Positions 30,001 through 42,000 of a stretch of DNA of 64,000 nt are shown piece after piece. Position 1 is the stretch's first letter, and each line of letters starts with the position of its first letter. This stretch comes from Isurus oxyrinchus (Eukaryota). Position numbers: made by a program. Where the stretch lies: contig JANJGN010000041.1 of the NCBI GenBank assembly GCA_026770705.1, positions 4,216,001 to 4,280,000 of the forward strand. Reading direction: 5' to 3'.

Positions 30001-33000
30001 GATGGCGAGAAGGACATTGATGAGGGAGCTAAACATCGTTAAACCTCGGAAACGACCCTGATGAACTCCGGTTCCCTGAGGAAATAAAAGGACTGGGAGC
30101 TGAACAGTCTGGGTGTATATTTAGAAAGTGCAGGTGCCGATAGGCCAGAGCAAACATTTTGAAAAGAGTGCTAGCTGAGCCGGCAGTGTGGGCAATTAAT
30201 ATTTCAGGCCCTAAGCAGACAGGGCAAAGATATCAGAAACACTGTAGCTGCTCGAAAAGACGGATCATGTATGTTTTGCCAAAAGAGGAATTAAATATTG
30301 ACAATAAATGCTTTTCTTGCGAGCTTTGCCCCTCATGCCATCACTGAAACTGTCTTGCTTTTAGGGTTCAGTTCTTGAAGGACAGTGGTTGTATTTTTTC
30401 TATTTAATGCATCTTTAATTGGCAGTTTTACTGGCCAATCATTTTAACGGGTGATTAGGGTGGTTATTTAGTAATGATCAAGACGATTTTGGAGTTGTAT
30501 CTGAGAAAAGCGAATGACCCAGGTAACAGGGAGAACCCGGAGGAGTGGCTGCCGGCTGCATCTTCCTAAAGATGTACAATAAGGAAAGGATGGGTCAATT
30601 GGTCTGCTTCTGTGCTGAGGCCCGTCTATGGTTGCATTCTACGAACGGCATTTTAGTTAAGTACATGATAAGAATACACAATGAAAAGAATTGCAAAACA
30701 AATTTTCACATTTTATATGCGTAGGTATACAAAGAAGGAAGTTGACGGTAGGTGGATGTGTGATCAGACGTTTCTTGGCTGGGACATCGTGCTGATATTT
30801 GGCTGAACTGTCACTCACTATATTGATGAATGATATCAAGATAAACATGTTAAAATAATCGGGAATTATGACAACAGCCATTTGGTGGCTGTGTGTGTGA
30901 AAGGACAAGTTAACATGAAACAGATAGTTTTGTGAAGGAGCATTCGTGGAGTAAGTAGCCCCGTTAATCGTGAAAACTTAGGTAGGACCTATCTGCGCCT
31001 TCAAATGAATTGCAGATAAATCGAATTTAGAATATTTGAATCCAAGATATGGAGCCAGCTCGCAGCCCGATGGATCATGGGAATGAGTGATCAATTCCAT
31101 CAATACCCGTCCTTTCACAAAACACGTGAGCACCTGGCCTTCCTTGTTGAAATCATGTGAGGTTTATGGAACTCTGAGAAGCAGCTTATTGTGCAACAGT
31201 CCCATATTTGGAGGGTGCCAGACTTAATGAAACATGTTATGAAAATTCCCCCTGGGTACCATTTGCTCCACAGGAGACGTTGTAGGAAATTTGTGACGTT
31301 TGTCTATGTTACATTTGTCGAGTTAACATGATACAATTGGTGATGTTTGGGGTGTTCTATTGTCGATCAGAACAAATGTTCCAATGAACACAAGGCTGTC
31401 AGACTCTGGCATCACCATTCACCCTTTCAAACACTGCAACGCTAACCGTGGCTGCTCAGTAATTTTATCATTATTTGTATTATTATTATCACAACTTACA
31501 ATTCACCATTGATTACATTATACTGTGAAAATGAGTTCAATTTGACATTATATAATAAAAGAGCATTTTAGTAGGATATATTATCCAGAGTGCTTAAACG
31601 TTGTTTCAAGCATTTTGCAAACATGATTTCTTTCAGGGCACACCGTTTTTGTCCCCCTGTAAAGGTCAGTGGGTTTTCAGCAGTAATTTGCCAAATTTTA
31701 GGCACAGTTTCACAAGGTACTGCATTCCACTCTTCAGCTCCTCCCTAAACCTAGCTTGTGTCAGCACATAAATGAATGTATTTGTGCAGGAGCTGAGGGA
31801 CCCAAGCATGAATCCAATTGACTCAAGCTCATTTGTGCCAGAATTCGATGTGATTTTTACATGCAGAGAGATAAAATATATAACCGATGTGGTCCAGAGC
31901 ACTATAAAGCTGCCAGTAATACTGAAGAGTAAAATAATGGACTTTCTTCGGCTTTCTATTTCAGAGTCCTTCTGATGTTCTCCATTGATGCAACCACGGA
32001 GACCCCTGCGAACTTTACTAGCCACCAAAATATGTCTTGCCGTCAAAACATTTAGTGACAAAATTAGAAAGAATGGAACACCTGGGGTCAAGGTAAGGGT
32101 AAACAAGGCAAATGCGGCCCATTCAGCAGAAATGAAAAATGTCTGTTTTAGTAAACAACCATGATTTACATTGTCCATTATATATGCAGGTTCATATGCA
32201 AAGTACCAGGGAATGTTTATCAAACAACTCAGTACACTCACCACTGATATGACAGCTACCGCTGTTGTCTCCGTGCAATATTTTTTTCGCAGCTTCTTAC
32301 AACATATGACCACAAAACGATCGAAGGTGAACACGACTGTTAACCAGAAAGAGGCTGATATTGCTACATTAATCAGTGTCACAGTTAGATAGCACACCGT
32401 GCTCGTGGTCAAGAATGAAACAGGGAAATAAATATTCAGCGTATTCTTCAGCATGACTTCAGCACAAACAACCAGGAGATCCATCGCGGACATGGCAATC
32501 ATATAGTGGGTAATACATTTGGAGAGGCCACATTTTCCTCGGGAAAGAATCACAATCGTAACAACATTAACTGTAAGAGAGGGATAGAGAGTGCAGGAGG
32601 TTGATGGCACAGATGAACATGATTAATTTTCTTCCTGTTGCAGCAAGGAATCTTGCATTTGACCCAAATATGCAGAGTTTGCATTTCGAGGCGAGCATGT
32701 TCTAAATGTAAACTGGACCTAGTGAAAGTGTATAGGGAAGAGAAACATCAGTTTATATTTTATCTTTTGATAGGAACATCTTCAACATAAACCTGCCAAC
32801 TGTTGTAGAGAAAAGGATTGAGATTGCTGAATGCAAATGGGAACTGGACAATTTGAAAGCACACAAGTGGCTGGGCATGGTGAATATTGTAGGGTAAATG
32901 GGAGGTGTAAAGATTGAATTCATGTGTGCTGTTACAATGGGAAGTGGCAAATGAATGCACAAAATAGAATCTGGGCCAAGTAGAGTTATACTCTGGAAGA

Positions 33001-39000: not shown

Positions 39001-42000
39001 CCTCCTGGTGACCACCTCCCGTTATCCTGAGCGGATGAAACAATGATCATTAATGGCCGACGTTTTGGGGAGTGACAAGAAAAAAAAAGTGCTTTACGTC
39101 GGGGACCTCGATGTCTGTGAGCAAGAGAGGATCAGTAGCACCACTAATGGCCGAGCTGGCAGACTCATAACGATAAATGCTAGATTGGGTCTTTGGCAGG
39201 TGGTCATGGAAACCACTAGGTGCAAAAACGTAATTGAATTCGCTCTACACATGTTCATGTATCCATTCAGTGATTTATAGTGCAAACGAATTCTGCCTTC
39301 ATATTGGGGCTTCCATCCATCGTGTTGTGTGAGACAACCATTGTGATAAATGGGGTGGGTTTCATCTTGATCAAGAAATCAAAAGTGTGCATTCACGATG
39401 CACTGTGGACCATTAGCTGCAGCTGATTTGTGCACAACCATAATTTCTAACCCCATTGCTGTGGTAATAAGTATGTGATTTGAGAGGCATTAAGATCCGT
39501 TAAAAATTGGAAAATGGATCAAAACCATTAGCAAAGACTTCAAGTATTTCAGGCGGAATTTTGCAGAATGCGAATTTGCCTCTCTGGAGATTTTCACAGA
39601 TTGGTTTGCACTTATGATAATTATTCCTGAACCCCACCTGCTAAAAGACATTCCGTGAAGCATGAATAAGGTGTCAGTTGTGGATATCACGGAGTGAAAG
39701 ACATAGCAACATGAAGGTTTCTGTTAACTTTATGGTTAAACATACCTCCCTGCTTTGATGACTCCCAACAGTAAAGAAACAATTTCATGTTATCAGACCT
39801 GACGGTTGAGAAAAACGTGAACATTCATTTAAATGTGTAATGATTGTATTTAGGCTCTTACCAGGAACACCAATAGCCGCGAGAACAGGATAGTAAATAG
39901 CTTCTATCTGGCGAAGAATCAGTTCTCCCATCTTTATGAGGAGATGCCTTTCCTGCAGAGATGGATGCACAAGACGGAATGAACGTGTCAGCTAAAACGT
40001 AGAAAACCTGTATTTAAAAAATTCACTTCAGGAAAGTAGGAGAAATACGTTAAAATCACAGGAGGTTCGGAAGGAGGTGCCACATTATTTAATCTGGAGC
40101 ACCAGGGTAAAACAGGCACGACAGCATTCGTAGCAGTGAACAGAAAAAAGCTGTTAGCTTTGGTTAACATGATGCACTTTAGTTAACTAATGGAACACCC
40201 GGCCGCTACGATCTAGAAAGATAAAGGCAGCATGAACATGGGAAAGCCACTAGCTGAACGTTCCACTCAAAGCCACTCATTGCCCTGGATCAGTACAGAA
40301 AAATATCGCCGTTCCTTCACTGTCTCTGTGTCAAATGAATGGAGCACCACCCTCCCCCACCCCGCTAACAATACGGTGAATGTAACTACACCACAAAGAC
40401 CGCAGCAGCTCACCACCCATTTCACAAGGCGAATTAGAGGAAGAAAAAAATGCTGGTATTGCCAGCCTTGCCTCATCCATCAATTGAAAGGACGGAAATT
40501 TATATTGTTAGTCCCAGAGCATTTTCATAAACGTACGTTGGAAAACAATGAGCTACAGCAAATTATATCCTCGCTGAGAAGCGCTAACTCCTGTAGAAGC
40601 AGACACACCGAGCCTGTTGGAAAACATGAAATGTGGCAATCAGAGAAGCTGTTATGTAGAAAGCAGATAAATCCCCATGAGCGCATTCATGTCCCCTAAA
40701 GAAATCAATTAGTTTCAGTCATTGAACAAACAGGTTACATCAGTCATTCTCCTTCTGAAAGGAACCGTTTCGAAGTGAAACGGCTAACATTGGAATGATG
40801 TGTGTGGTCTATACAATTAAAGGGTCTATATTTTAACAAGCAACGGGTTGATCCAATAGTGCATATTCACGGCGGGAAATGAATGACCCACAGAGGGATG
40901 TTGGGCATGAAATTGTTACTAATTTAGATCAAAATGATTCGTGGAAACTCAATCGGCCTGAACCACCAGGACAAGAAGTTGGAAAATTTCAGATGTTCAC
41001 CACTGATTTGTGCTTCGGGACACATTATATTTTCCAACAGGGCACATGACTGAAGTCTGTCTTTGTCATTTAATCTTCCAGAGGGAACTCATACGCTGCC
41101 CAGATCTTTCCGTGGATTCGTCTGGGAATGACATTTCTGTCAGTGACTTGACCTACATTCTGTGTCGTTGCACATAACTTTGCACCATTTTGCCTGGAAA
41201 TTATAAGCGCAACTGTAGGACCTGGAAGGTTGATTATGGTGGTGACCTGATGTGCAATAGAAAGTGTACAGAGAAGGCTTTTGTTTTCTCACCTGATATA
41301 TTTCAAAGTAAAGCGTTCAAGACAATCCGACCTGATTCACCCTCAGTACTGATTCCCCACGCCAAGCAATCCTCCTGCTCACCCACTCACATACTCCATC
41401 CAGAATGAACTGAATGAAAAACAATTGTTTGAATAAAATAATAGGATATCTAGAGTACGTCGCTGGAAGGGTATTCCACGCTAAACATTAAACTCTTGGC
41501 CCTTAAATTTCTTCTGCAGACCCTCATTAGCAGATGGATGCACTGATTATGATGAATCCGAATCGATGGCACCTCCGACTTTGGTGTGGGTTGCATTTCA
41601 AACAAGCACCAAAAACAGAATAGTTAAATTCAGTAGGTCATTCGGCCCCTTGAGCCTGTTCTGCAAATCGGAAGGCTCACGGTTTATCTGATCGGTGCCT
41701 CAGCCCCGCTGTCCTGTCTGTGTTCCCCCAACCAGCGCCGTACACCGGCCCCCTCCGCCATCTCTCTTGCAACACACACTTATATCCTCATGACCCTATT
41801 CTCCCTGATTGGTCAATAAGCTATCCAACTCAGCCTTCAATATGCGACAGCCCTAAACAGATGATCAGTGTCATTTGCTCTTTGGTGATGGCGTCATAAT
41901 CAGAACGATGCAAAATGGCTCGTTTGTGTGAACCTATTTCCTGTTTACTTGTGGCGCTGAATAAGGCTTTTTAATGGCTCCAGCACTGTTTGTCATATTT

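Follow-up and report, generated by a model that had tools for sequence, protein, structure and literature searches.

In a 64,000-nucleotide stretch of the Isurus oxyrinchus genome (contig JANJGN010000041.1, forward-strand positions 4,216,001 to 4,280,000; hereafter the window, with positions counted from its first letter) we find, on the minus strand at 31666-39931, a gene of 324 codons for a G protein-coupled receptor (GPCR) of class A, read from the sequence as two exons and one intron. The gene is a member of the elasmobranch expansion of receptors automatically named 'probable GPR139', and in that expansion the pocket is hypervariable and the inner face conserved. The family is huge, with varied pockets and apparently one output, and judged from sequence we consider chemosensory use its most likely role, a reading we hold with moderate confidence. 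We infer that the gene would be expressed and would couple to G proteins, that the variable positions would contact the ligand, and that the role would be a sensory one.

A variable pocket in an elasmobranch receptor family

Of 3,535 candidate proteins from a search with the exon-2 product (P0001), 1,957 had E≤1e-3. The best 120 of these 1,957 matches are listed, and our tallies of taxa and names cover those 120. All of them (120/120) come from sharks, skates and rays: 46 from one species (Heptranchias) and 41 from a second (Heterodontus), followed by Rhinoraja with 8, Pristiophorus with 6, Mobula with 5, Scyliorhinus with 4, Cetorhinus, Leucoraja and Narcine with 2 each, and Carcharodon, Mustelus, Hemitrygon and Rhincodon with 1 each. 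An earlier note, made from the window alone, had proposed an expansion in cartilaginous fishes; the expansion is there, with a very high copy number at family level, and the scope stands for sharks, skates and rays and finds no backing for chimaeras, which have no protein among the best 120 of the 1,957 matches. The note had also mentioned many automatically annotated GPR139-like paralogues, and 115 of the 120 are indeed named 'probable' or 'putative GPR139', the other five being called GPR15-like or cephalotocin, SIFamide or tachykinin receptor. Its description of the family as functionally undescribed agrees with our literature search (subscription-only papers lay outside it), which found no paper describing an elasmobranch GPR139-like family. 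At present the family is masked by this misleading automatic name. In a search of 1.84 billion representatives clustered at 50% identity, E≤1e-3 was reached by 452, ≤1e-10 by 146 and ≤1e-30 by 98. The ESM Atlas gave nothing but chordate clusters named 'probable GPR139' and generic seven-transmembrane (7TM) clusters. Closest among the matches listed are two proteins of lamniform sharks, one from the basking shark (P0003) and one from the white shark (P0004), at 81% and 80% identity to the exon-2 product, and identity to the 81 family members that were aligned ranges from 50 to 81%. Nine of the 41 Heterodontus matches listed share a contig size of 74,466,956, a hint of clusters; the window itself has one copy.

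The 81 aligned members are those of the 120 listed relatives with 305-345 amino acids (aa), 39 having been dropped for length, and together with P0001 they form an alignment of 82 rows. Shannon entropy was computed over the 81 relatives, and 13 positions homologous to the GPR139 ligand site (3x29, 3x32, 3x33, 5x40, 5x43, 6x48, 6x51, 6x55, 6x58, 7x31, 7x35, 7x38 and 7x42) were compared with 190 other helix positions; 1x39 and 1x42, which are in exon 1, and 2x60, 2x63, 2x64 and 4x61, whose mapping is unverified, were left out. Mean entropy was 2.45 bits in the pocket versus 0.99 elsewhere in the helices (Mann-Whitney p=4.7e-6), a ratio of 2.49. The most variable helix positions were 2.61, 2.64, 2.65, 3.28-3.33, 3.37, 6.51, 6.58 and 7.31-7.39, a set that we take to be the classical class A pocket. 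The best-conserved parts were residues 10-16 in the first intracellular loop (ICL1), with a mean entropy of 0.21 bits, and ICL2, with 0.6 bits. No stretch of the family is better conserved than the ICL1 motif SRGKCGLSKC (P0001 residues 9-18, 32515-32544, minus strand), C13 and L15 being invariant and S9, R10, G11, G14, S16 and C18 present in at least 90% of members.

Two groups of relatives provide natural controls. In 20 amphibian orthologues of a related low-copy gene, 12 of the 13 pocket positions are invariant and the entropy ratio is 0.05. In 76 members of a second, coelacanth-type group (120 listed rows less 33 unnamed and less 11 outside 300-375 aa) the ratio is 0.46, at a mean pairwise identity of 57% versus 62% in the elasmobranch set. 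The pocket is thus frozen in the low-copy relatives and rebuilt in the expanded family, with the signalling face fixed, which is the design of a receptor repertoire: a large lineage-specific expansion, and a hypervariable pocket on a conserved scaffold. The contrast between pocket and scaffold, with its two controls, is new evidence, and it turns what were 'many paralogues' into what appears to be a 'diversifying receptor repertoire'.

As a working mechanism, a water-soluble ligand would bind in a pocket formed by the outer halves of transmembrane helices (TM) 2, 3, 5, 6 and 7 beneath the beta-hairpin of the second extracellular loop (ECL2). This pocket would be rebuilt from one paralogue to the next, and the signal would leave through a near-identical intracellular face made of the ICL1 cysteine motif, the DRF motif with its two following cysteines, and ICL2. 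Rebuilt pockets over a near-identical inner face would amount to many pockets with one output, as in chemoreceptor repertoires. One pocket position sets the window receptor apart. Position 5x43 (5.42, counted from the TM5 proline) is Asp or Glu in 57 of the 81 relatives, and Asp in both P0003 and P0004, whereas the window receptor has Ala; with the usual acidic residue replaced, it probably recognises a different ligand from these two.

Some annotated relatives are much longer than the receptor itself. Of 13 long relatives that were scanned, P0193, P0207, P0237 and P0132 proved to be chimeric models; their 7TM domains are joined to sequence of a voltage-gated sodium channel, of integrin alpha, of a uromodulin-like D8C domain and of hemopexin. 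The N-terminal extensions were rejected as a family domain, being fusions to unrelated neighbour genes. The variety of partners suggests that family members adjoin or sit within many unrelated genes and so mislead automated gene annotation.

Relation to GPR139 and to low-copy relatives

Scored by phmmer, the exon-2 product matched the PrRP receptor (40.2 bits) slightly better than human GPR139 (35.9 bits, E=5e-8). When the profile of the 82-row family was run against solved receptors, GPR139 came out best (69.7 bits, E=2e-18) and the PrRP receptor next (48.5). Neighbour proteins also scored higher against GPR139 than against the next receptor (93.2 versus 50.9 bits for P0262, 70.4 versus 43.9 for P0233 and 53.2 versus 39.8 for P0226). 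GPR142 had no chain among the solved-receptor matches. Mutagenesis places the agonist site of GPR139 at F109 (3x33), H187 (5x43), W241 (6x48) and N271 (7x38), with R244 (6x51) and E108 (3x32) as a polar part (PMC5430874). In the window receptor the F109, H187, W241, R244, N271 and E108 sites are occupied by N, A, W, S, F and I, as mapped through the alignments of P0001 and of the profile to GPR139 and checked against the residue letters given in that paper, and of five agonist-site residues it keeps one, W6x48.

By these comparisons the window receptor is GPR139-like at the level of the superfamily and is not a GPR139 orthologue. Both halves of this had been anticipated in the earlier note: the relatedness is borne out by the family profile and by P0262, P0233 and P0226, and the lack of orthology by the score below the PrRP receptor and the loss of four of the five agonist-site residues. 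The same loss means that sensing of aromatic amino acids does not transfer with the name, and that the amino-acid or peptide sensing proposed in the note does not follow from kinship with GPR139. A shark orthologue of GPR139 or GPR142, serving as an aromatic amino-acid sensor of brain or gut, would explain why 115 of the 120 best matches bear the GPR139 name and why GPR139 is the top solved match of the family profile. It is hard to reconcile with the 35.9-bit score under that of the PrRP receptor, with N, A, S and F in place of F109, H187, R244 and N271, with nearly two thousand database members in the family, or with a TM6 proline that GPR139 has and the window receptor lacks. Scores, agonist-site residues, copy number and TM6 together effectively refute this alternative, which we regard as highly improbable.

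Human GPR139 (PDB 7VUG and related), an orphan that responds to aromatic amino acids and peptides, shares with the family a TM1 in which G-x-P-x-N comes after an aromatic pair at 1.38-1.39, W6.48, and an N-x-x-x-Y motif without proline in TM7. They differ at 6.50, which is Pro in GPR139 and Thr in the family, and at 3.25, where the family has Cys and the GPR139 chain a gap or Asp in the profile alignment. They differ too in copy number, GPR139 presumably being a single gene and the family having nearly two thousand database members.

The family was placed among its relatives with a maximum-likelihood tree (IQ-TREE quick search) of 64 rows, chosen by hand out of some 410 proteins: 30 elasmobranch rows with names, 18 unnamed representatives, six from amphibians or sturgeon, nine of coelacanth type, and the window receptor. 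Support is given as the Shimodaira-Hasegawa-like approximate likelihood-ratio test (SH-aLRT). The window receptor groups with the white-shark and basking-shark proteins (100), these three with a Heterodontus protein (99), and all within a nine-row subclade with a short third extracellular loop (ECL3; 99). The elasmobranch proteins with the unnamed rows attached to them are supported at 86 and their union with an amphibian/sturgeon clade at 99; the coelacanth-type clade is the next branch outward. With a sister gene that seems to be single-copy, the family is most simply read as descending from a single-copy ancestor.

This sister gene is represented by P0226 of the newt Pleurodeles waltl, which is 30% identical to the exon-2 product. 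A search with P0226 gave 25 matches in all, namely 20 amphibian proteins at 66-74% identity, a sturgeon protein (P0408, Acipenser) at 46% and then elasmobranch proteins at 32-33%; apart from the elasmobranch family, only amphibians and sturgeon appear among the 25. The gene (P0226, P0389-P0407 and P0408) looks like one per species, whereas the family is highly multicopy. Common to both are two cysteines after DR(F/Y), a Y-C next, and D-P-E-M in ICL3, and the sister gene differs from the family in an ICL1 without the cysteine pair. With 12 of 13 positions invariant, its pocket in amphibians has the GPR139-like residues F3x33, W6x48 and N7x38, with K at 6x51. At 2.50, P0226 has Asn rather than Asp.

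The coelacanth-type gene is represented by P0233 of Latimeria, 31% identical to the exon-2 product. It is a low-copy gene with 145 matches in bony and cartilaginous fishes (catshark P0271), amphibians and reptiles, and differs from the elasmobranch family in having S or C at 6.48, where the family has W. GPR139 is its best solved match and its pocket is conserved (the ratio of 0.46 above). Arg at 6x51, Gln at 6x55 and Asn at 7x31 are invariant in P0233, P0271 and 74 others, and the gene appears to be a receptor under strong constraint that has a single ligand. In three records of this type the receptor is named after or fused with TMEM183A. An Ensembl survey, in the part drawn on here, put the coelacanth, gar and fish orphans GPR210A/B under 'GPR139; GPR142', with no cartilaginous fish included (PMC6504862). 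P0233 may be one of GPR210A/B as described there.

The receptor gene and the rest of the window

All features of the gene lie on the minus strand. The coding part of exon 1 (39862-39931; product P0002) starts with an ATG at 39929-39931 in a context of A at -3 and G at +4, and its 23 codons and one base cover a very short N-terminus and the front half of TM1. A phase-1 intron of 7,291 nt (32571-39861) follows, with the donor G|GTAAG (GTAAG at 39861-39857) and a pyrimidine tract and AG at 32580-32571. Exon 2 (31666-32570, 905 nt) adds two split-codon bases, 300 codons (P0001) and a TGA at 31668-31666, so that 70 and 902 coding nucleotides make up the 324 codons. The split codon, G|TT, puts the intron in phase 1 inside TM1, and exon 1 is required because the exon-2 frame has no methionine upstream of TM2. 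As read from the alignment, 21 of the 23 residues of P0002 are identical to the N-terminus of P0003. The conserved N-terminal 23 residues of the relatives, which are protein records only, are compatible with a split at the same place in TM1. Each exon gave one tblastn match in the 64-kb window, that of P0002 being the only one below E=1, and neither product found a second copy or fragment there. The earlier description of a 324-aa 7TM protein with one phase-1 intron in TM1 is upheld by this exon reading and by the match to P0003. Our searches and the structural model used P0001 or P0002 singly rather than the joined 324-residue product. A missed first exon probably accounts for the form of P0004 (Carcharodon carcharias, 275 aa, named 'GPR15-like'), which begins at an internal TM2 methionine and is without TM1.

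An open frame of 318 codons is the longest in the window, and none of 200 block shuffles reached that length (mean longest 171 codons, maximum 306). Of 125 open reading frames (ORFs) free of N and at least 85 aa long, one passed the Pfam cut-off, the exon-2 ORF with 7tm_1 at 67 bits; the ORFs within the intron gave nothing above it. P0001 itself matches 7tm_1 at 67.5 bits (cut-off 30.5, E=1.7e-18) over profile positions 2-260 of 260. The class A hallmarks N1.50, D2.50, C3.25 with its ECL2 cysteine, DRF, W6.48, N7.49 and Y7.53 are kept, and the prolines 6.50 and 7.50 are missing throughout the elasmobranch family, the window receptor included.

An AlphaFold2 model of the exon-2 product, built from the 82-row alignment, shows the rear half of TM1, TM2-TM7, the ECL2 hairpin and a long helix 8 region (mean predicted local distance difference test 86.5, predicted template modelling score 0.80). 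In this model TM3 spans P0001 residues 56-89 (32302-32403), with C3.25 at C59, DRF at 32314-32322 and the pocket residues V at 3x29, I at 3x32 and N at 3x33. The predicted ECL2 hairpin is at residues 129-136 (32161-32184), with strands assigned by DSSP at 129-131 and 134-136 and Cys138 just after; C59 and Cys138 are conserved in at least 90% of family rows. TM5 (residues 148-190, 31999-32127) contains P5.50 at P162 and the Ala of 5x43/5.42 at Ala154 (32107-32109). TM6 (residues 202-238, 31855-31965) carries FIVLWTT at 31888-31908, in which W225, invariant in the family alignment, is 6.48 and T227 stands at 6.50 in place of Pro. ECL3 has six residues in the model (239-244, 31837-31854), five fewer than in most relatives, a gap common only to the subclade with P0003, P0004, P0006, P0008 and P0009. 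TM7 (residues 245-270, 31759-31836) has NTFIY at 31768-31782, that is N7.49 to Y7.53 without Pro, and helix 8 with a C-terminal helix is modelled at residues 272-299 (31672-31755).

All the motifs listed in the earlier note are thus found (SRGKCGLSKC, DRF, FIVLWTT without Pro, the short ECL3 and NTFIY), as is the very short N-terminus without N-glycosylation, neither exon product having an N-x-S/T sequon. They are for the most part traits of the family at large rather than peculiarities of the window gene: no sequon occurs in the first 12 residues of 58 relatives of 319-328 aa, in 45 of which the aromatic pair that opens TM1 is at residue 13. Other family motifs in the window receptor are two Cys after DRF, W-x-T in TM6, N-T-x-I-Y in TM7 and a stretch of about 12 residues ahead of the aromatic pair. 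On the cytoplasmic face, five cysteines, two in ICL1 (C13 and C18, within 32515-32544), two at the end of TM3 (C89 and C90, 32299-32304) and one in ICL2 (C98, 32275-32277), are invariant or present at ≥90% across the 82 rows. Palmitoylation, metal binding or a docking site are possible reasons for their conservation.

Outside the receptor no gene was recognised in the 64-kb window by Pfam on its ORFs, Rfam at gathering thresholds found nothing in it and ARAGORN found no tRNA gene in it. A satellite of about 3 kb at 7815-10800 consists of about 54 copies of 56-bp units with 62% matches, and contains at 8557-9017 much younger higher-order units of 111/222 bp with 93% matches. A second tandem array, at 63081-63803, has about 14 copies of 51-bp units with 72% matches; the long frames open there on either strand are artefacts of the repeat and match nothing in Pfam. 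Runs of N at 44010-44476 and 44587-44817 surround a GATA microsatellite (44477-44586). Open frames at 60364-60816 (minus strand) and 4911-5393 (plus strand) gave no Pfam match at E≤0.01; to the eye they resemble retroelement remnants, the first integrase-tail-like and the second LINE-tail-like. The note had placed the gene as the only intact ORF among decayed repeats. The first part holds, the receptor exon 2 being the one ORF of 125 to pass the Pfam cut-off. The decayed repeats stay unverified, since satellites are seen and no transposon domain was found by Pfam in the 125 ORFs.

A proposed chemosensory role and comparison with known systems

Several observations weigh against a functional chemosensory receptor at this locus. 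In the parts of a catshark sensory genomics study drawn on here, no GPCR is among the 50 genes most specific to 'brain & olfactory epithelium', and a view is cited that ciliated olfactory neurons are absent in sharks (PMC11979771). The pocket was located by aligning GPR139 and not from a ligand-bound structure of the family, the tree is without a bona fide GPR139 or GPR142 and depends for its root on two long rows without names, and the 64-kb window carries one family copy and no cluster. Three further points concern constraint on the window copy. The 26 changes on the window branch fall at 6 of 91 family-conserved versus 20 of 179 variable columns (Fisher p=0.16). The window protein departs from the family at 8 of 102 conserved columns (median 3, maximum 9), ranking 77 of 82. 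Finally, when random substitutions were simulated until the protein had diverged by about 10%, exon 2 remained free of stops in 27% of trials, a figure that counts substitutions only and that frameshifts would lower.

The Fisher result gives no demonstrated constraint on the window copy; the same test gave p=0.014 for the basking-shark protein and p=0.52 for the white-shark protein. The purifying selection that the note had read from the intact frame is therefore plausible and, at p=0.16 and with 27% stop-free survival, not demonstrated. These figures, together with the loss of the acidic residue at 5.42 and of a Cys after P5.50 and the standing of the protein among the most deviant members, would also suit a pseudogene of recent origin that is not expressed, or a copy under relaxed constraint whose frame is still open by chance. 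We think this unlikely, however. Despite the 7.3 kb of intron between the exons, the gene has an intact start, an intact stop and two intact splice sites; D2.50, C3.25, DRF, W6.48, N7.49 and Y7.53 are all kept, and most of the changes at conserved columns are conservative ones. The window, P0003 and P0004 proteins are equidistant (79-81% identity) with no indel among the three over 270 shared columns, and the annotated relatives P0012 and P0083 deviate more (9 columns).

A second alternative accepts a working receptor and gives it an internal role. The family would then consist of expanded receptors for endogenous neuropeptides, hormones or immune peptides, like the expansions of MRGPR, FPR and chemokine receptors. 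In a Foldseek search of the PDB, the model of the exon-2 product has class A peptide receptors as its structural neighbours (CCK1R, GALR2, C3aR, GPR15 and NMUR2, at template modelling scores of about 0.7), and it includes an ECL2 beta-hairpin. The fold comparison does not, however, discriminate among class A receptors, and GPR139 itself is not among the 50 PDB matches listed. Five of the 120 best matches carry peptide-receptor or GPR15-like automatic names. An N-terminus of about 8 unglycosylated residues, on the other hand, would leave little surface for binding peptides, and the nearly 2,000 database matches point to a size well beyond that of known endogenous-ligand receptor families. The GPR139 lineage is regarded as activated by peptides or amino acids (PMC5218887, PMC8807744), and in the catshark the olfactory receptors (ORs), trace amine-associated receptors (TAARs) and ORAs have most of their expression elsewhere than in the nose (PMC11979771), so expanded shark GPCRs need not be olfactory. 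On balance we rate an endogenous ligand as possible and rather doubtful, and we keep chemosensory use as the preferred reading.

The chemosensory reading has a counterpart in what sharks appear to lack. Elasmobranchs are known for acute chemical senses, yet the catshark repertoire has two OR and six OR-like, three ORA, three TAAR, two TARL and 32 V2R genes, the V2Rs being the main olfactory family (PMC11979771); these counts agree with the note's statement of few classical olfactory receptors in sharks. The name GPR139 does not occur in the parts of that paper drawn on here. Nearly two thousand database members, pockets that vary between copies and an unchanging signalling face make this class A family a tangible candidate for those absent receptors. 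A bolder and still tentative proposal, which we would not yet favour, is that elasmobranchs built a class A chemoreceptor repertoire of their own from a single-copy GPR139-like gene, an independent counterpart of the ORs of bony vertebrates and of teleost TAARs that would supply the sensors missing from their tiny OR, TAAR and ORA sets. Many of its members, though not that of the window, would catch cationic ligands such as amines through the acidic 5.42. If true, this would show cleanly how an orphan receptor present in single copy became a repertoire. Even as internal peptide or immune receptors the family would be a very large vertebrate GPCR expansion of which we found no description in the literature.

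The nearest likenesses lie with other large receptor sets. Vertebrate ORs and shark V2Rs follow the same repertoire logic as the family, in that their paralogues are numerous, their binding positions variable and their signalling face conserved. Kinship with the ORs is limited to membership of class A, and with the V2Rs, which are class C, there is none. ORs have a single exon and a glycosylated N-terminus, whereas the window receptor has an intron in TM1, as its family probably does, and neither shows an N-terminal sequon. Teleost clade III TAARs, an analogy only, are like the family a large lineage-specific class A expansion in fishes. Teleost olfactory TAARs bind amines via Asp5.42, and an acidic 5.42 is found in 91 of 112 zebrafish TAARs (PMC4695389), compared with 57 of the 81 relatives here; by this analogy the acidic residue in most relatives is a lead toward amine binding. 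TAARs are nevertheless an unrelated branch of class A, and the window receptor has Ala at this position.

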